Shown here piece by piece: positions 19,692 through 32,000 of a DNA stretch of 32,000 nt. Source of the stretch: Xenococcus sp. PCC 7305 (GTDB taxonomy: Bacteria; Cyanobacteriota; Cyanobacteriia; Cyanobacteriales; Xenococcaceae); NCBI RefSeq assembly GCF_000332055.1, contig NZ_ALVZ01000225.1, forward strand, positions 15,173 to 47,172, read 5' to 3'. Numbering within the stretch: the stretch's first letter is position 1; each line of letters begins with the position of its first letter. The position numbers and the translations under genes were made by a program. Below the pieces are notes generated by a model. The model was not told the origin of the DNA and made no database searches. It saw only the letters and a program-made list of their open reading frames with translations.

Positions 19692-20255
19692 TTGAGCCTG
19701 CTCAAAAGAAAACTACCAGCACTAGAGTTTCTTGCGATCGCAAAAGTTGGAGATTTTGTTACTACTCCCAGTAGAGGAAAAATTGGCAAACTGATTCAGC
19801 TTGAAGACAAGCCCAATGGATCAACAGTTGCTCAAGTACTATGGGAAAATTCTTTTTCGACCGAAGCTTGCTGTCCTTCGGTCTTGCAGCGAATCGAGCC
19901 GGAGCTTTTAGATTGCCAATGGGTAGAAGGAAAAGGGTTTGTCCGTCCTTTTGATAAGAAAGCTTGCTACGACCTCAAGGAGTTGTGGGGTTTTACTAGA
20001 ACCTTGTGGGAAGAGCCTCAAAAGAAATGGGCTTGCGATCGCTATAATGCGATCGCCTCTGTTTGGTTTCGAGAACAAAATTTAGTGGAAAAAGAAGATC
20101 GTCGATACGCGATCGCGAATATCTTTCGTGGTTCTGGTCTGACCACCTTGGCTTGCTATTTGGTTAAGGATAAAGCGGTGACTTCCTTTTTCTATCCTCA
20201 CGAAGTTAAGCGAGTCAGCGTTGCCGAACAGATTAGATTTTTGACAAATTTTTGA
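19692..20255 (+). CDS. hypothetical protein (187 aa); true 5' end uncertain, stop codon supplied by the IS end
   Basis: The frame is open upstream to 19578 without a start codon. TGA at 20253-20255 lies inside the TTGAC terminus of the adjacent TnpB element. Confidence 0.5.
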   Translation: MSLLKRKLPALEFLAIAKVGDFVTTPSRGKIGKLIQLEDKPNGSTVAQVLWENSFSTEACCPSVLQRIEPELLDCQWVEGKGFVRPFDKKACYDLKELWGFTRTLWEEPQKKWACDRYNAIASVWFREQNLVEKEDRRYAIANIFRGSGLTTLACYLVKDKAVTSFFYPHEVKRVSVAEQIRFLTNF

Positions 20256-20291
20256 CCTACTCCCACGGCTGAAGCACGTGGGATTCGAGGC

Positions 20292-21413
20292 TCATGCAGA
20301 GATTGCAGCAGATAGCTGACTGACATCTCCTACCCTCAGAGTTGAAGCCCCAACTCTTAAAATGTTGACCGCTGCATTAGTATCACGCCCGTGCTTACAA
20401 CTACATGATGGGCAAGCCCAATAACGTTCAGCTAAAGACAATTCATCCAAAACATAGTCACAGCTAGAGCAAGTTTTAGATGATGGATACCATCGATCAA
20501 TATAACTAACAATCTTTCCTTTCTTTTGGGCAACAAACTCTAGTATTTTGAGAAACTCGCTAAAGGCCAAATCTCCTATCTTGCGCCCCCAGAGCCTTTG
20601 CATTCCTTTGAGGTTAAGAGTTTCAAAATAAAGATAATCATAGCCATCGGTTAACTGATGAGCTAATTTCCAGAACCAATCGCTTCGGCGGTTGGTTACC
20701 TTCTCATGAACTCTGACTAAATTTTTTCTAGCTTTTTCCCTTGAGTTTGAGCGTTTTTGCTTCCGAGAAAAATCACGGCTGGCTAACTTTAATCGCTTTA
20801 AAGACTGCTTAAGGAATAGAGGTGAATCAATGTCATTGCCATCAGAGCAAGTTAAAAATGTTTTTAACCCAAAATCAAAACCCGCGCTTTTACCCGTCAT
20901 GGAAGTGATTTGATAATCAACATGATCTGTTACTACAAAGATGAACAACTCCCCTAGGGGATTTCTTTTAATAGTTACAGTTTTAACTTTCCCTTGGATT
21001 TCTCTACTTTTCCAATAGCGATAAATTTTGTTGCCAATTTTAAGTTGATTGTTATCTAGAAATTTATACCCTGCTTGTTTAAGAGTGAATGACTTATATT
21101 TAATCCTCTTCCTAAAATTAGGTGGCCTGACTCCTTTTTTATGATGCTTGAAAAATAACTGATAAGCTCTATCGATTCGCTGCGCAATATCTTGGACAGC
21201 TTGAGAACCTACTAATTGCCAGTACTCATTTTTTCTCCTGAGTTTAGCAATATGCTTCATTAACCTATTTTTGTTTAAGTGCTTACCAAACATAGAATAA
21301 TAACGCTTATGCAAAGCTATGCAGTGGTTATAAATATTTCCTGCTGCATTAATTGAGCGATGCAAATGCTTATTTTTCTTATGCTGGTATAACTTAAATT
21401 TGTAGGTCTCCAT
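20292..21413 (-). CDS. tnpB: TnpB RNA-guided nuclease (373 aa), catalytic residues present
   Basis: METYKFKLYQHKKNKHL. RuvC-I AGFDFGLKTFLT, RuvC-II YLYFETLNLKGM, zinc ribbon CSSC...CPSC and RuvC-III GRDTNAAVNI are present. Confidence 0.9.
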   Translation of the reverse strand: METYKFKLYQHKKNKHLHRSINAAGNIYNHCIALHKRYYSMFGKHLNKNRLMKHIAKLRRKNEYWQLVGSQAVQDIAQRIDRAYQLFFKHHKKGVRPPNFRKRIKYKSFTLKQAGYKFLDNNQLKIGNKIYRYWKSREIQGKVKTVTIKRNPLGELFIFVVTDHVDYQITSMTGKSAGFDFGLKTFLTCSDGNDIDSPLFLKQSLKRLKLASRDFSRKQKRSNSREKARKNLVRVHEKVTNRRSDWFWKLAHQLTDGYDYLYFETLNLKGMQRLWGRKIGDLAFSEFLKILEFVAQKKGKIVSYIDRWYPSSKTCSSCDYVLDELSLAERYWACPSCSCKHGRDTNAAVNILRVGASTLRVGDVSQLSAAISA

Positions 21414-21455
21414 GTGTCTATGATAGCATAATCATAAACACAAATCAAATTATAA

Positions 21456-21854
21456 ATGGCGCAAAAATATCGACACAAAATTACTTCTGTGACTTTAATT
21501 AATTATCATTTTGTTTGGTGTCCAAGAAGACGAAAAAAAGTGTTAAAGGGGTTAGTTGCTGAACGACTGAAGCAATTAATAATTGAGGCTTGCCAAGAAA
21601 TTGATGTGACAGTATTAGCAATGGAAGTTATGAGCGATCATGTTCATGCTTTCTTAAATTGCCCTCCAACCCTTGCACCTTACCAAGTCATGCATAAAGT
21701 TAAGGGTTACACTGCCAGATACTTAAGACGAGAATTCAAAGAGCTACTTAAGCTTCCTTCAATGTGGACTAGAAGTTATTTTTGCTCTACTGCTGGGAAT
21801 GTTTCATCTAGTACTATTGAGAAATATATCGCTCAACAAAAAACCCGTGGCTAG
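21456..21854 (+). CDS. tnpA: IS200/IS605 Y1 (HUH) transposase TnpA, 132 aa
   Basis: YHFVWCPRRRKKVL, the HUH motif SDHVHAFL, KVKGYTARYLRREF and a C-terminal catalytic-Tyr helix STIEKYIAQQ. The gene is divergent from tnpB with a 42-nt gap. Confidence 0.9.
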   Translation: MAQKYRHKITSVTLINYHFVWCPRRRKKVLKGLVAERLKQLIIEACQEIDVTVLAMEVMSDHVHAFLNCPPTLAPYQVMHKVKGYTARYLRREFKELLKLPSMWTRSYFCSTAGNVSSSTIEKYIAQQKTRG

Positions 21855-22080
21855 AATATTTCATCCCACGGCTAAAGCACGTGGGCTTTCCTTTGCTGTA
21901 AACGGTAAGTGCGATCGCTCTAGGCAAGTGAATGCTCAATAACCAACCAAGTAGCTTGAGGATTAAATCCATTTCCTGCCAAGTCAGCAGCCTCAAACCC
22001 ATGCTCAGTCATAGTTTAAGCTAATTTTTTTGAGCGAAAGTCAGCACCTTTTATAATTGATTTGACGCTCGGCATTGCAA

Positions 22081-22287
22081 CTAGTTCAAATAGCCCAAAA
22101 TAGGCTGGCTGAAAATATTAATCAAAACTCCGATCGCGATCGTGGCCAATAACCACTGTGCAGATTGTAATGTTTTATCAATACTGCTTATTTTTTGTTC
22201 GATTACGGCTAACCTTTCTGAGTTCTTGATTAGCTGCTGAAGCATAGCTCCTTCGTAATTTAGTTTTTGCTCTTGCTCTGTCATCAT
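22081..22287 (-). CDS. small coiled-coil protein with C-terminal transmembrane helix (XhlA/holin-like)
   Basis: LAVIEQKISSIDKTLQSAQWLLATIAIGVLINIF has a coiled coil followed by a hydrophobic helix. It lies downstream of an XRE gene. Confidence 0.4.
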   Translation of the reverse strand: MMTEQEQKLNYEGAMLQQLIKNSERLAVIEQKISSIDKTLQSAQWLLATIAIGVLINIFSQPILGYLN

Positions 22288-22335
22288 AAATCCTCTATTT
22301 TAAAAATTCTCTATAGGATTATTTTTTCGGTGGGG

Positions 22336-22575
22336 CTATTCGTCGCGATCTGGCACCAAGCTTTTCCCTAATGCTTTTTCCATTCCCCTTAATGTTTCAA
22401 CTGGCAAGTCTCTCACTTTTTCATTTTCGATGCGATTCCAGTGACTGTAGCTAATACCTGCATTTGCAGCTAATTCAGTCATACTTTTCCCTGATTTCTT
22501 GCGAAACTCTCTAATCTTTTCTCCCAAACCAGGATAGTTTTTACTGAAGACGACTCTCATCAAAAGTGAATCCAT
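22336..22575 (-). CDS. XRE-family HTH regulator (79 aa or shorter)
   Basis: IREFRKKSGKSMTELAANAGISYSHWNRIENEK is a canonical HTH_XRE core. Confidence 0.75.
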   Translation of the reverse strand: MDSLLMRVVFSKNYPGLGEKIREFRKKSGKSMTELAANAGISYSHWNRIENEKVRDLPVETLRGMEKALGKSLVPDRDE

Positions 22576-22749
22576 AAGTGTTACTCCTTAAGTTTGTCTT
22601 ATGTAGTTGCCTTTTATTATAGCTTCTTAAGCGTCGCTTGCAAAGTGTCTCTTGATAAGATACAATATTTTTATAACAAAAGCGACCTCATTTCTTTGGA
22701 CGGAGCTGAGATCGCCTTTGCTGTAAACAAAATTATTGTTATACCCATC

Positions 22750-22944
22750 ATGACACAGCAACTACTCGAAGCTCAAGTAGCTTCATCAGAATTTGACGAG
22801 CGACCCCGCGCCGCCGACAGGCGTTTATCCTCGAATGGGGACAAGGGAACCCCCATTCGAGGACAAGCGCGCGAGTTTGATGCACTAGCATTCGAAATCA
22901 AGCATTTTGAAGATTATCAAAGATTAAACACTCCCTACTACGAA
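22750..22944 (+). pseudogene. N-terminal half of a gene split by a TnpB element
   Basis: The ATG is at 22750 (MTQQLLEAQ...RLNTPYYE). The next 7 codons and the stop come from the IS end. The paralogue at the window end reads ...PYYEILSDYDYND without interruption. Confidence 0.7.
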
Positions 22945-24187
22945 TTGACATACTCCCCGCCCTAAAGGTGCGGAGATTCTGGGATCAAGCAGCAATTGCG
23001 CCCAAAGAGCGTCTTACATCGCCTAGCCCAAGAGAAGATGCCCCTTCTCTTTTAATGTTCTTAGCTGCATTCAAATCTCGATCCAACTTGGAGCCACAAC
23101 CAGGACAATCCCAAACCCTATCTTTGAGAGTTAATTCTTTATTGTGATATCCACAATCAAAACAAGTTTTGGAGCTGGGATAAAACCGATCAATAAAATG
23201 TATTGTCTTTCCTTTATTCCTAGCTACTGTTTCCAGGATTTCTAAAAAAGTTGAGAAAGATAAATCACTGACTTTTCTCCCCCACAACTTTTTCATTCCT
23301 CTAAGATTTAAATCTTCAAAAATTAGCACATCATAATCATTTGTCAATTTATGGGCTAACTTCCAAAACCAATCTCTACGTTTATTGGAAATTCGCTCAA
23401 ATACTCGATTGAGATTGTCTTTGGCCTTGTACCAATTATTAGAACCTTTTTTCTTCTTAGAAAGATTTCTGCTAGCAGCTTTCAACAAATGTCTAAACTC
23501 ATTAAAAAACAAAGGAGATTTGATAGTTGTTAAGTCACTTGCAGTTAAAAATGTTTTTAACCCAAAATCGAAGCCTGCAATTTTACCTGTCACGACTCCG
23601 AAAGATTCATCTTTATAGCCAGTTACCACTAAGATAAATAACTCACCAAGATGATTGCGCTTAACCGTCAGCGTTTTAATCTTTCCTTTTATTTCTCTAC
23701 TTTTCGAAAATTTATAAATTTTATTCCCTATCCGAATTTTGTTGTCTTCTAAGAACCTGTATCCTGCTTGCTTTAGAGTGAATGATTTATATTTTCTGGT
23801 CTTTTTGAAGTTAGGGGGTCTTGTCCCTGACTTGCATTGCTTAAAAAATAATTTATAGGCTTTATCGATTCTTTGACAAATATCTTGTACTGCTTGGGAG
23901 CCAACTTGCTGCCAATATTTTATTCGTCTTCTAAGCTTAGCAATATGCTTCATGAGCCTGTACATGTTCAAGTGCTTACCAAAGATTTTGTAGTATCTTT
24001 TATGCAAGGCAATACAATGATTGTAGATACTTCCACTAGCATTGATTTGCCAATTCAGGTATCTATTCTTCTTTGACTTGTATAGCTTGAACTTGTACGT
24101 TTTCATGAGAATATTTTATCATGAATTACTTGATTAGTACTAAAGAATTACGCCCTGAAGGGCGGGGCTTTAAACCCATGATTTTAG
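22945..24187 (-). mobile_element. tnpB-only IS200/IS605-type element inserted in a coding sequence
   Basis: RE is TTGACATACTCCCCGCCCTAAAGGTGCGGAGATTC at 22945 onward. LE is TTACGCCCTGAAGGGCGGGGCTTTAAACCCATGATTTTAG(G), ending at about 24187. GTAA (TTAC on the element strand) lies at 24188-24191. Boundaries are supported by the empty paralogous site. Confidence 0.75.
22985..24106 (-). CDS. tnpB: TnpB RNA-guided nuclease (373 aa), close paralogue of 20292-21413
   Basis: MKTYKFKLYKSKKNRYL. RuvC-I AGFDFGLKTFLT, RuvC-II VLIFEDLNLRGM, zinc ribbon CFDC...CPGC and RuvC-III DRDLNAAKNI are present. Confidence 0.9.
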   Translation of the reverse strand: MKTYKFKLYKSKKNRYLNWQINASGSIYNHCIALHKRYYKIFGKHLNMYRLMKHIAKLRRRIKYWQQVGSQAVQDICQRIDKAYKLFFKQCKSGTRPPNFKKTRKYKSFTLKQAGYRFLEDNKIRIGNKIYKFSKSREIKGKIKTLTVKRNHLGELFILVVTGYKDESFGVVTGKIAGFDFGLKTFLTASDLTTIKSPLFFNEFRHLLKAASRNLSKKKKGSNNWYKAKDNLNRVFERISNKRRDWFWKLAHKLTNDYDVLIFEDLNLRGMKKLWGRKVSDLSFSTFLEILETVARNKGKTIHFIDRFYPSSKTCFDCGYHNKELTLKDRVWDCPGCGSKLDRDLNAAKNIKREGASSLGLGDVRRSLGAIAA

Positions 24188-24394
24188 GTAATCGCTAAGT
24201 TCGACTATAACGACGGAATCAACAAATTCACTCTTCTTGCCGATTGTTTCATCGCAGGACATTACTATCGCGACCCCTGGAGCTCCGATTGGATTGGCAA
24301 ATCTTATTGCAATGGCAATAGCGAAGAAGTTCTTTTCTCCACTAGAGATTTAGCCGTGGCTTACCTTAAACGCCAATATCTCGCATCCTGTTAA
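24188..24394 (+). pseudogene. C-terminal half of the split gene (paralogue of 31780-31983)
   Basis: VIAKFDYNDGINKFTLLADCFIAGHYYRDPWSSDWIGKSYCNGNSEEVLFSTRDLAVAYLKRQYLASC* is nearly identical in length and sequence to the minus-strand ORF at 31780-31983. It has no start codon, and a TAG inside the IS end immediately precedes it. Confidence 0.75.
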
Positions 24395-24450
24395 TTATTT
24401 AGCTCGCCATTTAATTGGCGGGCATTTTTATTATTTATTTGGAGGCAATC

Positions 24451-25143
24451 ATGCCAAACATAGAAATTTTCAATTTTGAAGAGCAGCCAGTTCGTTTTGT
24501 TGGTACAGCAGAAAAGCCTTTGTGGGTAGGAAAAGATATTTGCGATATTTTGAGCCTTTCGAAGTATAGGGATGCCTTGGCAAGATTGGACTCAGATGAA
24601 AGGGAGCTGGTATTACTGGACACCCCTGGAGGTAAACAGTCAGTAACGTGCATTAACGAATCGGGAATGTATTCTCTGATCTTTGACTCGCGAAAACCCC
24701 AAGCAAAAAGATTAAAAAAATGGGTGACTTCTGAAGTCTTGCCTAGTATTCGCAAAACTGGGAGTTACGCGATCGCACAAAGCTCCGCTTCGCAGTCAGC
24801 AAAAAACGAATCCACTCTTTCAATTCAAGATCAAATCCTAATTGCTAATTTTGGAGCTGAATCAGCGATCAACGCAGGAGTCTCGAAGCCGATCGCAGAA
24901 TCAATTAAGTTAGATTCACTAGGAAACGTTTTACCTGAAGCCAAGCCATTATTGCTTCCTCAAAAAAATGCGATCGCATCTGCTAATCCCATTGAAGAGC
25001 AGCCTGTCTCTCCGACAATTATTGGGCAAAGAGTTGCCGCCAAAATGGGGCTGGACAAGGTTTCTGCGATCGCGGTCAACAAAAAACTGCTATCTCTTGG
25101 CTATCAACTATCAGTCACTAGATTGACATGCTCTCCGACCTGA
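24451..25143 (+). CDS. BRO-N domain phage antirepressor-like protein, 3' end altered by IS insertion
   Basis: GGAGG lies 7 nt upstream of the ATG at 24451. FEEQPVRFVGTAEKPLWVGKDICDILSL...INESGMYSLIFDSRKPQAKRLKKWVTSEVLPSIRKTGSY is the Bro-N signature. The last 6 codons and the stop are IS end sequence. Confidence 0.8.
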   Translation: MPNIEIFNFEEQPVRFVGTAEKPLWVGKDICDILSLSKYRDALARLDSDERELVLLDTPGGKQSVTCINESGMYSLIFDSRKPQAKRLKKWVTSEVLPSIRKTGSYAIAQSSASQSAKNESTLSIQDQILIANFGAESAINAGVSKPIAESIKLDSLGNVLPEAKPLLLPQKNAIASANPIEEQPVSPTIIGQRVAAKMGLDKVSAIAVNKKLLSLGYQLSVTRLTCSPT

Positions 25144-26517
25144 AGGTACGGAGATTCTAGCACCTCACGACGCTAGCTTTCTGCTTCGACCTGTGCCAAC
25201 TAGAGCATCGTGACCGATACTCCCCGTCGCTTCCAGTCCACAGACATTTTCAACCACGCTATGCCCTAGCGCAGAGACTCCTCTATTTCTTATTTCTTGG
25301 CTAGCTGCTACGTCCCTTGTAGTTCTATATCCACACTCACCGCAATGATGAAAGCGAATATCTAAAGTTTTCTTGCCTGTATGTGCGCCACAGTTAGGGC
25401 AAGTTTGGCTTGTCCCATCTTTATTGACCACAGCAAAATACACATCACGACGGAAACATACCCACTCAAGAATACTTACAAACTGGCCAAATCCAGCATC
25501 GGCACTATGTTTTGAAAGCATTCCTCTTTGCCAAGAAACGAAATTGATGTCTTCTACGAATATCATTCCTGTTCCATCACAAAGATGATGAGCTAATTTA
25601 AAGTGCCAATCTTTTCTGGTGTCAGATATTCGTTGATGCAGTCTAGCTATTTTTTGATTAAGCTTGTGTCGATTATTTGAGCCCTTGTGCTTATTCTTTA
25701 ACCTGCGTTGTAGCAATTTAAGCTTACGATGCATGAGCTTTAAGAATCGAGGTCGTTTAATTTCTTCTCCATCACTGGTGGCAACAAATTTGTCGTATCC
25801 TAAATCCAATCCCCTAGGATGACCATGCGGCAATGGATTTGGGGTATCGACCTTTAGCTGTAATGACAACATCACGAAATAACCAGACGCTTTTCTAACG
25901 ACCCTTGCTTGCTTGACTTCAAAACCTTCAGGAATATCTCTTGATTTGCGCCATCTAATCCACCCAAATTTTGGCAGCTTAATAGCATCATCTTTGATTG
26001 GATTTTTCCCTAGTTGAGGAAAAACAAATGAGCGCATTCGATACCTATTTTTGAACCGAGGGAATCCAAACCCTCTAGATCTCATATCGTCCCAAGCTCT
26101 ATCTAATATTCTTAAAGTTTGCTGTAACACTTGAGAATGAACAGAACTTAATGCAGGATAGAGCTTTTTTGCATCTGTTAGCTGTTTGGCTTGTTGGTGA
26201 TAGCTAGGGAATGGTTCATCAACAGAGATTATATATTCTGAATTAATCGAGCAGGCATTTACAAGAGACTTACGAGAGTTACACCAGTCTTTGCGCTGTC
26301 TGAGCGCAAAATTCCAAACAGAACGACAAATATCGAGTGTTTTTTCGATGTCAGTAATTTGCTCTTTTGTTGGCTGTAGCTTGTATTCGTAAGTCATTGT
26401 TAGCATTTAGCTATTATAGCTTACATGGGGAGCGGCAGCATGTAAAGTTTTGAGCAAGTCAATATACAGGAAGGCTTACGCCCTAAAGGGCGAGGTTTTA
26501 GACCCATGATCCCAAGG
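25123..26517 (-). mobile_element. tnpB-only IS200/IS605-type element, with ends like 22945-24187 but a different TnpB
   Basis: RE is TTGACATGCTCTCCGACCTGAAGGTACGGAGATTC at 25123 onward. LE is TTACGCCCTAAAGGGCGAGGTTTTAGACCCATGATCCCAAGG, ending at 26516 or 26517. Confidence 0.7.
25165..26406 (-). CDS. tnpB: TnpB RNA-guided nuclease (413 aa), distinct subfamily
   Basis: TYEYKLQPTKEQITDIEKTL. RuvC-I RGLDLGYDKFVATSDG, RuvC-II MIFVEDINFVSW, zinc ribbon CPNC...CGEC and RuvC-III TRDVAASQEI are present. Confidence 0.85.
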   Translation of the reverse strand: MLTMTYEYKLQPTKEQITDIEKTLDICRSVWNFALRQRKDWCNSRKSLVNACSINSEYIISVDEPFPSYHQQAKQLTDAKKLYPALSSVHSQVLQQTLRILDRAWDDMRSRGFGFPRFKNRYRMRSFVFPQLGKNPIKDDAIKLPKFGWIRWRKSRDIPEGFEVKQARVVRKASGYFVMLSLQLKVDTPNPLPHGHPRGLDLGYDKFVATSDGEEIKRPRFLKLMHRKLKLLQRRLKNKHKGSNNRHKLNQKIARLHQRISDTRKDWHFKLAHHLCDGTGMIFVEDINFVSWQRGMLSKHSADAGFGQFVSILEWVCFRRDVYFAVVNKDGTSQTCPNCGAHTGKKTLDIRFHHCGECGYRTTRDVAASQEIRNRGVSALGHSVVENVCGLEATGSIGHDALVGTGRSRKLAS

Positions 26518-26534
26518 ATAAAATAACTACCTCT

Positions 26535-26565
26535 TTCCCAAAGGGACATTTTGTCCCTCTGGGAA
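26535..26565. terminator. bidirectional hairpin between convergent genes (GGGACA-tttt-GTCCC core)
   Basis: TTCCCAAAGGGACA pairs with TGTCCCTCTGGGAA. It lies between the end of the antirepressor gene and IS and the dcd stop at 26579. Confidence 0.5.
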
Positions 26566-26578
26566 TTTGGCTTTTGCG

Positions 26579-27181
26579 CTAAACTCTGGGCAATGTTACT
26601 CCGTGACCTTGATTTTGGTATTTTCCACCGCGATCAGCATAGGTTGTTTCACAGGGTTCCCCTTCAAAAAACAATAATTGTACTACCCCTTCACTAGCAT
26701 AAATTTTTACATCGGCACTAGAAGCATTAGAAAATTCAAGCGTAATACTTTGACTCTTCCAAGAAGCTTCTAACGGTGTAATATTAGCGATTACTCCAAC
26801 ACGCGCATAGGTTGACTTGCCAAGACAAACAGCAGTTACATTAGAAGGCATCTTGATGCTTTCGAGTGACGCGCCTAATCCATAACTATTGGCTGGAATT
26901 ATGAAGTAAGAAGAACCATCTTTATTAGTGTGTAATTCAGCTTGTTCTAAGTTTCTAGGATTGAAATCTTTGGGATCTACTACCGTCCCAGGGATATGTC
27001 TAAAAATCCTGAAATCATGCGGAGATAAACGTATATCGTATCCGTATGAACTCAACCCCCAACTGATAGTTGGAACTTCTTTGTCTGTACCTAAAATTGC
27101 TTTTCTGATTGATTTTTTTTCAAAAGGAGAAATCATTCCTTTACTGGCCTGATCAATAATCCATTTATCGTTTTTTAGCAT
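26579..27181 (-). CDS. dcd: dCTP deaminase
   Basis: Collinear with the short bacterial Dcd form: KWI...GMI.PF, GLSSYGYDIRL, VDPK.F, IIPANS, CLGKSTYARVGVIANITPLE, TLEFSN and YADRGGKYQNQ.GVTLP. Confidence 0.85.
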   Translation of the reverse strand: MLKNDKWIIDQASKGMISPFEKKSIRKAILGTDKEVPTISWGLSSYGYDIRLSPHDFRIFRHIPGTVVDPKDFNPRNLEQAELHTNKDGSSYFIIPANSYGLGASLESIKMPSNVTAVCLGKSTYARVGVIANITPLEASWKSQSITLEFSNASSADVKIYASEGVVQLLFFEGEPCETTYADRGGKYQNQGHGVTLPRV

Positions 27182-29545: not shown

Positions 29546-30820
29546 TTAGTAAACATAATTGTATCCGTCGTTTTTATGGACATGAGTTAAGTATTTTGGA
29601 TGAACATCAAACTTCTTATCAGGTAACTGAAGAACAAAACTAGGACGAAATCTAATAGCAATTCTGCCTAGATATTGACCTGTAAATTTACCTTTAAGGA
29701 TAGATGCCGATACCAAATCTCCTGTTTGAAATCCTCGAAAGAATTTAGCTTTAGAAGCATGGCTTTTGGGGAATCCAAACTTGTTAGGACGGCATCGTTG
29801 CCTTGTTCCGTGACCTGTTGCCTTAATCAACAAGGGTTGATTAGTTTTAAAGATTAGATCCTTAGAAAGTTGACCTACACAAGCAGCATCTTGCCAATGA
29901 GTCTTGGGAACTTTTAATTGTTTGCGATTAAACTTAGTCAATCCTCCACTCCCTGTCTCTACTGGGAATCCAAATTCTTTGAGCGAATTAAATAATTTCC
30001 AACGGGTAGAATTAACAGCGGCAGCATCCTTTAAAGGAGTCTTTGCTTGCTTTAAAATACGGTTAATCAAGTCAGGCTTCTCTTTTAGAAAGTCCTTGAT
30101 ATCTTGGTTCCCCTTAGATTGATTACAGTCATGACAAGCTAAAGTTAAATTGGAGACTCGATCAGAGCCACCTTTTGAGCGGGCTTTGATATGGTCAACC
30201 TCAAAAGGAACATTTTGTGCCCCACAATATTGACAGGTACGATTAAACTTATTTAGCAGGTACTCTCGAACCTCCCAACCGTAAAGAGTTCCGTGTTGAT
30301 ACTCAACTCCACTAATCTCAGGGTTCTCCTGTTTTTGTAAGTCAAATTTAACCAACTCAACAGAAATTGAATCTACAGGGCAATATCTTATTAATCTTTT
30401 AACCCAAGTTAAAGTAGTATCTACTCGATGCTGGAGGCTTGGGGGGAGCCAACCTTTGGGGCGAGTTCTGTTAAGAAATCTTGGTTGACGATAACGGGTT
30501 TTACGTCCTCGCCTTCCTTTTCTTAATTGTCGCCTTGAGGTTAATTTATCCTTGATATGTTGTCCTCTATGCTGTAATTCCGCTCCCCAAATAACCCGAT
30601 TGTTTTGCAACAACGCAATTCCAGTTTTTTGAGAACCTGGGTCAAGCTTTAATTTGACATTCTTCTGAGTTTCTTTTGCTTCCTCCTTGAGAATAATAGT
30701 GAAAGGATAACGCCGAAATACAGCAGCCTTCCCCTCTGTTAATAATCGTCTTGCCTGCCCAGGATGAACAGGGTTTAACGGGTTTTTAACTGTATCTAGA
30801 ACAAAAACATAATTTTGCAT
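29546..30820 (-). CDS. iscB: IscB RNA-guided nuclease (PLMP domain, split RuvC, HNH insert), 424 aa
   Basis: PLMP-like NPLNPVHPGQARRLLTEGKAAV, RuvC-I KLDPGSQKTGIAL and bridge helix RRQLRKGRRGRKTRYRQPRFLNRTRPKGW. RuvC-II ISVELVKFD, HNH CQYCG...EVDHIKARSKGGSDRVSNLTLACHDCNQSKGN and RuvC-III THWQDAACVG. Confidence 0.85.
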   Translation of the reverse strand: MQNYVFVLDTVKNPLNPVHPGQARRLLTEGKAAVFRRYPFTIILKEEAKETQKNVKLKLDPGSQKTGIALLQNNRVIWGAELQHRGQHIKDKLTSRRQLRKGRRGRKTRYRQPRFLNRTRPKGWLPPSLQHRVDTTLTWVKRLIRYCPVDSISVELVKFDLQKQENPEISGVEYQHGTLYGWEVREYLLNKFNRTCQYCGAQNVPFEVDHIKARSKGGSDRVSNLTLACHDCNQSKGNQDIKDFLKEKPDLINRILKQAKTPLKDAAAVNSTRWKLFNSLKEFGFPVETGSGGLTKFNRKQLKVPKTHWQDAACVGQLSKDLIFKTNQPLLIKATGHGTRQRCRPNKFGFPKSHASKAKFFRGFQTGDLVSASILKGKFTGQYLGRIAIRFRPSFVLQLPDKKFDVHPKYLTHVHKNDGYNYVY

Positions 30821-31064
30821 TTTAAGTCTCCCGTTAGGGGTAATGTTTGCCTCGCTTGGTTATCTAACTTTGTTCGGTCTAATTCACTGGATTAACCCGT
30901 TTAGTCCTGTTTAAAATTAAACGACAGAGCTTAAAGCTGGCACGTACCTTAAGGTGTCATAAGTTAAATAACGTTTACTGAAGTTTTCAGTAAGCTGGTC
31001 ACCTTGCGGACTTTTTCAAGCCCCCGTTAAATTGCGGAGCAATTAACGGTGGGTCGGTGACGGG
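30821..31064 (-). ncRNA. candidate IscB omega-RNA scaffold
   Basis: 244 nt with no ORF directly upstream of iscB on the same strand. Nested helices: 30998-31003 with 31056-61, the 31021-31053 hairpin and the 30977-30991 hairpin. OMEGA IscB systems encode their guide RNA in this position. Confidence 0.55.
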
Positions 31065-31721: not shown

Positions 31722-31779
31722 GGTCTTTTCTCCAAAAGATAAATAATAAAAATGCCCGCCACGATCGCGAGCTAAATAA

Positions 31780-32000
31780 TTAACAAGATGCTGCGTACTG
31801 GCGTTTCAAATAAGCAACAGCTAAATCTCTAGTGGAGAAAAGAACCTCTTCGGTATTGCCGTTACAGAAAGATTTGCCAACCCAATCGGAGCCCCAGGGG
31901 TCGCGATAGTATTGCCCTGCAACGAAACAATCGGCGAGAAGGGTAAATTTGTTGATTCCGTCGTTATAGTCGTAATCGCTCAAGATTTCGTAGTAGGGAG
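31780..32000 (-). CDS. uninterrupted paralogue of the IS-split gene, 5'-partial at window edge
   Basis: The track starts it at TTG 31983, but the frame stays open to nt 32000 (…PYYEILSDYDYND). It matches the junction of the two halves at 22750-22944 and 24188-24394. Confidence 0.7.
   Translation of the reverse strand, partial: PYYEILSDYDYNDGINKFTLLADCFVAGQYYRDPWGSDWVGKSFCNGNTEEVLFSTRDLAVAYLKRQYAASC

Follow-up and report, generated by a model that had tools for sequence, protein, structure and literature searches.

The prototype of "peel-and-paste" transposition of single strands is IS608 of Helicobacter pylori. It is cleaved 3' of a TTAC located 19 nt 5' of its left imperfect palindrome (IPL) and at a TCAA located 10 nt 3' of the right one (IPR), and its left guide tetranucleotide (GL) is AAAG (PMC3201880). 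In TnpB systems, the joint left in the donor DNA is the target of the nuclease, and the transposase TnpA and TnpB share one recognition motif, the transposon-associated motif (TAM) (Karvelis 2021; Meers 2023). In Geobacillus, one TnpA mobilized diverse related elements (Meers 2023). Here, we describe an IS608-like insertion sequence (IS) of the IS1341/IS891 type without tnpA, which interrupts a small gene in a 32,000-nt stretch of Xenococcus sp. PCC 7305 (contig NZ_ALVZ01000225.1; the whole stretch is called the window below). We consider it, with a probability of roughly 0.85, to be an IS608-type IS200/IS605 element that has been reduced to tnpB and its omega-RNA and that works by the known TnpB logic. 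The coordinates of all features are given in Table 1.

The boundaries of the element follow from the host gene. Its open reading frame (ORF) begins at 22750 on the plus strand and reaches a GAA codon ending at 22944, after which foreign sequence continues in frame. The host frame restarts at 24188 with GTA ATC GCT AAG TTC GAC TAT AAC (VIAKFDYNDGINKF). The insertion is located between the codons GAA (E) and GTA (V), i.e., GAA/IS/GTAATC, and no target-site duplication is present. A comparison of the joined host gene with 5.8 billion proteins retrieved just three relatives, each of 105 aa. Two of these are from Xenococcus sp. PCC 7305 (P0001, encoded at the window end, and P0002), and the other is a Logan protein (P0003). 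The alignment with these three intact family members has zero gap at the insertion junction, which means that the insertion neither added nor removed host residues. An initial annotation of the window had proposed a split gene with RLNTPYYE ending at 22944, the frame returning at 24188, and equal protein length across the junction. The translations and the gapless alignment confirmed this reading, including the element coordinates 22945-24187. At the junction, the interrupted copy reads E-V-I-A-K-F, P0002 and P0003 read E-V-I-G-R/H-F, and P0001 reads E-I-L-S-D-Y. As P0002 and P0003 also have V-I here, GTAA (TTAC on the opposite strand) is host coding sequence. We also considered TTAC as the element's own sequence but rejected this assignment because V-I (GTA ATC) represents family-conserved host codons.

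Both ends of the element resemble those of IS608. In both cases, the insertion is 3' of TTAC, the right end (RE) closes with TCAA (22948-22945 here), and AAAG stands 5' of the left hairpin. The hairpins are subterminal and imperfect at both ends with a bulged base, and neither terminal inverted repeats nor a target duplication are found. The spacing is similar as well, with ~20 nt between TTAC and hairpin (19 nt in IS608) and ~12 nt between hairpin and TCAA (10 nt in IS608). On the element strand, the spacer from TTAC to AAAG is 16 nt. The right guide tetranucleotide of IS608 is GAAT, and GAAT is also present at the RE of the Xenococcus element. Directly after TCAA, the next 16 nt are TTCGTAGTAGGGAGTG. 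Unlike IS608, the present element resides in a cyanobacterium and has no tnpA, as only 81 nt are available between the left boundary and the ATG of tnpB. The neighbouring element at 20252-21904 does have one.

The same architecture is found in relatives of the element. A metagenome scan yielded 80 loci with a TnpB that is 58-88% identical to that of the element. Nearly all relatives with a complete 3' end (about 70) share the arrangement TGA...GAAT-C-(hairpin)-GGAGTAKGTCAA and diverge fully right after TCAA, and three relative contigs stop exactly at TCAA. Among the 62 left end (LE) candidates with AAAG and hairpin, 59 have TTAC 12-19 nt 5' of AAAG, while ~0.04 per locus is expected by chance. 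Two of the three candidates without TTAC are probably spurious because their loci have another candidate LE. Upstream of TTAC, no conservation was detected among the relatives. Both end hairpins are conserved and show compensatory changes. The claim in the initial annotation that an IS608-type TTAC precedes the LE thus holds for the element itself (24191-24188, minus strand) and for its relatives. TTAC is thus the target motif of the whole clade, and as TnpA and TnpB use the same motif by rule, it is also the predicted TAM.

The TnpB of the element can be aligned over its full length with ISDra2 TnpB of Deinococcus radiodurans (8bf8/8h1j, E = 5e-46), which is known as a complex with its omega-RNA (PDB 8bf8, 8ex9, 8h1j). 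The RuvC triad is kept (D in AGFDFG, E in IFEDLN, and D in DRDLNAA) and so is the zinc finger CxxC..CxxC. In both systems, the final part of tnpB and the RE together encode the scaffold, and the guide comes, in the Xenococcus element by prediction, from the flank. In contrast to ISDra2, where the TAM/target is TTGAT, the motif here is TTAC; the identity is only moderate, and the scaffold matches no Rfam model. The best annotated relative is a TnpB family protein on plasmid alpha of Nostoc sp. PCC 7120 with 62% aa identity, and the nearest relatives overall (84-88%) are from unannotated metagenomic contigs. The nearest annotated relatives carry the label "RNA-guided endonuclease TnpB family protein" or "IS891/IS1136/IS1341 transposase." Like the cyanobacterial elements of the IS891/IS1341 group, the present element is a TnpB-only IS200/IS605 derivative, but its identity to any annotated plasmid copy is ≤62%. 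The locus is an unnamed TTAC-type IS200/IS605 TnpB-only element and hence a system of a known kind.

For the omega-RNA, the final 200 nt ending at TCAA were aligned for 71 elements. RNAalifold gave 34 consensus pairs, and compensatory double changes occur in 23 of them. Pairing was found in 96.7% of cells compared to 37-49% when the partners were slid by 1-3 columns; the consensus structure was derived from the same alignment, which favours it in this control, but the margin is very large. The region is largely coding. The covariation score was 0.514 compared to ≤0.11, and none of 500 shuffles reached the observed values. The helices cover at least 23050-22954. The scaffold is strongly supported by covariation and is intact in this copy.

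According to the TnpB rule, the flank of the RE (TTCGTAGTAGGGAGTG) is the predicted guide and the predicted target at the donor joint. The initial annotation had reported a second, 14-nt match at 31987-32000 with AGAT in place of TTAC. We found the 14-mer TTCGTAGTAGGGAG exactly twice in the window, at 22931-22944 on the minus strand and at 31987-32000 on the plus strand, and the latter copy is preceded by AGAT as described. This copy is part of the intact paralogue P0001, 8 kb from the element, which reads CTCCCTACTACGAA ATC TTG AGC GAT TAC GAC TAT AAC (PYYEILSDYDYNDGINKF) on the minus strand from 32000 downwards. The two genes show 87% identity over 238 nt (31739-31972 vs. 24438-24202), and the guide sequence recurs because the paralogue keeps the NTPYYE codons. 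A chance origin of the match was rejected, as there are exactly two copies and these are in a paralogous pair of 87% identity. The similarity continues past the window end, where the protein P0001 keeps FDALAFEIKH.EDYQRLNTPYYE. Since the next codon of P0001 is Thr (ACN), base 15 of the guide matches too. The match is therefore at least 15 of 16 nt, and base 16 depends on whether the codon is AAC or AAT. The predicted guide RNA UUCGUAGUAGGGAGUG lies antisense to the NTPYYE codons in paralogue mRNAs, certainly for P0001 and possibly for P0002.

The same annotation had regarded the paralogue as the empty site. The paralogue is indeed uninterrupted, but it is not a true empty site because the 15 nt on the TAM side are inverted relative to the interrupted copy. 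By the family rules (Karvelis 2021; Meers 2023), the match in the paralogue would be protected only by the missing TAM. A site without TAM is expected to be neither an insertion target for TnpA on that strand nor a cleavage target for TnpB. Overall, the factual statements of the initial annotation were all correct, and its interpretation is supported in each testable part.

New here is an in-frame inversion of 15 nt in the paralogue at the insertion/TAM position. When compared with the interrupted copy, the block (GTAATCGCTCAAGAT) matches at 5 of 15 positions directly and at 10 of 15 as the reverse complement in register. There is a 9-nt exact reverse-complement run (GTAATCGCT / AGCGATTAC); for random 15-mer pairs from the window, a run of at least 9 has P = 5e-5. 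With two single-base gaps allowed, a manual reverse-complement alignment gave 13 matches in 14 aligned positions. TTAC is absent beside the paralogue match because of this inversion, which moved TTAC to the distal end of the block, on the sense strand, so that AGAT abuts the match. The inverted state is likely derived in P0001, judged by parsimony over the four family members (the others keep V-I...F, with EVIG.F in P0002 and P0003). The ancestral context of the block is the quasi-palindrome CGAA-12 nt-TTCG. Quasi-palindromes are prone to spontaneous template-switch inversion. Given this context, no tie between the inversion and the element is required. A simple inversion between the CGAA/TTCG repeats was also tried as an origin, but only with additional shifts of 3 nt does it yield the sequence of the paralogue.

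In the proposed mechanism, single-stranded DNA of the element would have inserted 3' of the TTAC on the antisense strand of the host gene in a prophage-like region. Transcription reading through the RE would yield an omega-RNA with UUCGUAGUAGGGAGUG as its last ~16 nt. Upon excision by TnpA, a scarless donor joint, TTAC+TTCGTAGTAGGGAGTG, would be formed and would be cut by TnpB, provided that TnpB is active and TTAC is also the TAM of the nuclease. Recombination with a filled chromosome copy would then restore the element. As the element lacks tnpA, excision would need TnpA in trans; the intact Y1 TnpA of the neighbouring element, ~1 kb away, is a possible source and the obvious candidate. The predicted logic is that of TnpB/IscB homing by ISGst elements of Geobacillus stearothermophilus, where the nuclease is directed to the donor joint with its TAM and RE flank, a single TAM serves both TnpA and TnpB, and one TnpA can act on several related elements (Meers et al. 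2023). Unlike ISGst, for which this was shown by experiment, the present locus allows a prediction from sequence, and it has a second guide match without TAM in a paralogue. With regard to the mechanism, nothing is new, as every testable feature conforms to the IS608/TnpB model.

Several points weigh against a working element. Window positions 22821-26528 recur without a difference in a Logan contig from SRR3926847 that reads through the entire element, which suggests only one copy of the element in that strain; the unbroken contig gives no sign of recent transposition. Mobilization in trans is uncertain because the element itself lacks tnpA and differs in hairpin sequence from the TnpA-bearing neighbour. 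IS608 TnpB was reported to be inactive as a nuclease in E. coli assays, and activity of the present TnpB should therefore not be assumed. The 3' end of the omega-RNA at 22944-22929, the predicted guide, is placed by analogy with other TnpB systems. Finally, no Rfam model matches the scaffold at E ≤ 1 over 20100-26600. This last point reflects the coverage of the library rather than the loss of a defining feature.

Alternatively, the element could be a stranded, silent relic with no cognate TnpA and with TnpB and omega-RNA not expressed or inactive, so that the paralogue match would have no consequence and need no protection. The missing tnpA, the apparent single copy, and the inactivity of IS608 TnpB in heterologous assays fit this explanation. 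The survival of intact P0002 with its E-V-I junction in the same genome would also count for it if P0002 bears TTAC and a guide match. However, tnpB has an intact ORF in which every catalytic and zinc-binding residue is kept, and the two ends and all omega-RNA helices are complete and agree with the consensus of the clade. Moreover, an intact TnpA (HUH, Tyr) is encoded 1 kb away in an element with the same AAAG/GAAT tetranucleotides, and a single TnpA in Geobacillus mobilized diverse related elements. We hence regard a relic as unlikely, although it deserves to be taken seriously.

The inversion in the paralogue could be understood as an escape that was selected because the resident TnpB/omega-RNA cut an ancestral TTAC+guide site there or would have directed a copy of the element into it by recombination ("paralogue homing"). 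The inverted block is located immediately beside the guide match, removes TTAC, and keeps the frame; it has a direct identity of 5 of 15 within an 87%-identical gene, and it is likely derived, as the three other family members keep V-I...F. But the TAM could be lost more easily by one synonymous substitution (at V-I, P0003 reads GTC ATT), and a quasi-palindrome such as CGAA-12 nt-TTCG can invert spontaneously without a nuclease. ISDra2 TnpB cuts at the TAM-distal end, where scars would thus be expected rather than on the TAM side. The inversion may also predate the insertion. Selected escape appears improbable. A further concern is that the boundaries or the guide are mis-assigned, with TTAC being a part of the element or the RE being shifted by a few bases, in which case the 14-nt match would not be the guide. 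TTAC is conserved across the relatives, and conservation alone cannot separate flank from element. In this case, however, the host protein is restored only with GTA ATC, whose residues V-I are also found in P0002 and P0003, the similarity of about 70 relatives ends exactly past TCAA, and the layout equals the experimentally defined cleavage sites of IS608 (PMC3201880). A mis-assignment is therefore very hard to sustain.

For an element working by the TnpB logic, the genome provides a natural test case, as it contains a filled site, a TAM-less paralogue that matches 15-16 nt of the guide, a third paralogue possibly with both match and TAM, and an intact TnpA adjacent to the element. The locus is suited to test TAM dependence, the tolerance of self-targeting, and the spread from one paralogue to another by recombination in a native cyanobacterium. 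The third paralogue, P0002 (EVIGRF; possibly GAA GTA ATC), may still carry TTAC and is a more critical case than P0001. If its gene reads AACACTCCCTACTACGAA followed directly by GTAATC, a TAM-bearing self-target would be tolerated, implying an inactive or silent TnpB in favour of the relic. If the inversion is a selected escape, obligate mobile element-guided activity (OMEGA) elements would exert measurable selection on paralogous host sequences, and the block would be a host-side scar of this conflict. In addition, the alignment of 71 sequences provides a covariation-supported omega-RNA scaffold for a cyanobacterial clade of TTAC-type TnpB, for which Rfam gave no model at E ≤ 1.

Table 1 Features of the TnpB-only element, its host gene family, and the neighbouring element (window coordinates)
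Feature	Position	Strand	Basis or details
IS608-like IS without tnpA (IS1341/IS891 type), 1,243 bp	22945-24187	-	Host colinearity; ends TTAC/...TCAA/; RE alignment with the neighbouring element and about 70 relatives
TTAC, TnpA target and predicted TnpB TAM	24188-24191 (24191-24188)	-	Host codons GTA ATC = V-I
Left end	24107-24187	-	AAAG 24171-24168, directly 5' of hairpin CGCCC TTCA GGGCG 24164-24151
tnpB, 373 aa, intact	22985-24106	-	Pfam OrfB_IS605 and Cas12f1-like TNB
Omega-RNA scaffold, minimum extent, overlapping the tnpB 3' end	22945-23050	-	RNAalifold, 71 sequences
Omega-RNA helices	23050-23031; 23030-23027/22983-22980; 23023-23019/22995-22991; 23013-23008/23002-22998; RE hairpin	-	
Right end	22945-22979	-	GAAT 22979-22976; imperfect hairpin CCGC-A-CC TTTA GG-GCGG 22976-22954; tail GAGTATGTCAA
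Predicted 16-nt guide and donor-joint target TTCGTAGTAGGGAGTG, 3' flank of RE	22929-22944	-	TnpB rule: guide = RE flank
Interrupted host gene, 5' part	22750-22944	+	MTQQLL...RLNTPYYE; ORF/translation and alignment with P0001-P0003
Interrupted host gene, 3' part	24188-24394	+	VIAKFDYNDGINKF...QYLASC*; stop at 24392-24394
Intact paralogue P0001 (Xen7305DRAFT_00008590), C-terminal 72 codons, running past the window edge	31780-32000	-	tblastn, 100% over 72 aa
Second match, guide positions 1-14	31987-32000	+	Base 15 set by P0001 Thr codon ACN
15-nt block on the TAM side of the paralogue match	31972-31986	+	Reverse complement of interrupted-copy block 24188-24202
P0002 (Xen7305DRAFT_00008900), third Xenococcus sp. 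PCC 7305 paralogue	Outside window		
P0003, Logan protein, third relative of the host gene			
Neighbouring autonomous element	20252-21904	-	tnpB with 64% aa identity and divergent Y1 tnpA
Y1 TnpA of the neighbouring element	21456-21854	+	Y1_Tnp E = 4.6e-39; HVH (HUH) motif, C-terminal Tyr; intact

Regarding the host gene, no Pfam domain was found in this 105-aa family. A profile search of genome contigs with the family alignment yielded only two remote homologues in metagenome-assembled genomes (~30% identity), which are too diverged for DNA comparison, and viral contigs contained no member of the family. Exact-protein look-ups of a 64-aa neighbour, P0001, and P0002 for flanking DNA gave no match, and an 88-aa neighbour matched a Logan contig that extends in the opposite direction from the paralogue flank sought. 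The 5' half of the interrupted gene contains an extra in-frame GC-rich insert of 84 nt (window 22789-22881; SEFDERPRAADRRLSSNGDKGTPIRGQAR) that is found in none of the three homologues. The insert is bordered by an imperfect 9-nt direct repeat (GAATTTGAC / GAGTTTGAT), contains a perfect 12-bp palindrome (CCTCGAATGGGG...CCCCATTCGAGG), and has a predicted fold of -24.9 kcal/mol (z = -4.25). One Logan contig breaks at 22821, within the insert. These features hint at a dispersed small repeat or a miniature inverted-repeat transposable element; further copies were present neither elsewhere in the window nor in viral contigs. Just past their stop codons (24395-24438 and 31739-31779), the paralogues share a GC-rich stem with a T-run (GCTCGCCA..TGGCGGGCATTTTTATTATTT) that looks like an intrinsic terminator.

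The host gene is divergent from a small gene with an XRE-type helix-turn-helix (HTH) domain at 22336-22575 on the minus strand. A homologue of the host gene on a Logan contig (L002, 2135-2443) is likewise divergent from an XRE-type HTH gene. Further neighbours are of the Bro-N, ParB-like, and KilA-N types. Together, these genes suggest an early-gene module of prophage-like or mobile-element type.

The neighbouring element ends with GGGAGTAGGTCAA, which is in register with GGGAGTATGTCAA of the TnpB-only element, and the sequences part beyond that point. It uses the same AAAG/GAAT tetranucleotides at its ends, but its hairpin sequence differs. The TTAC that had been noted at this element was found at 21905-21908. 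Because a second TTAC is present at 21898-21901, the left boundary of the neighbouring element is ambiguous by 7 nt.

In total, the window contains four OMEGA-type nuclease genes, three for TnpB and one for IscB. The third TnpB (413 aa, 25165-26406, minus strand) has an N-terminal HTH_OrfB_IS605 domain and is of a different subfamily than the other two. The IscB gene (29546-31061, minus strand; 424 aa, RRXRR and HNH) is located ~900 nt from the paralogue, and its HEARO/omega-RNA at 30840-31061 matches the Rfam model RF02033 with 127 bits.

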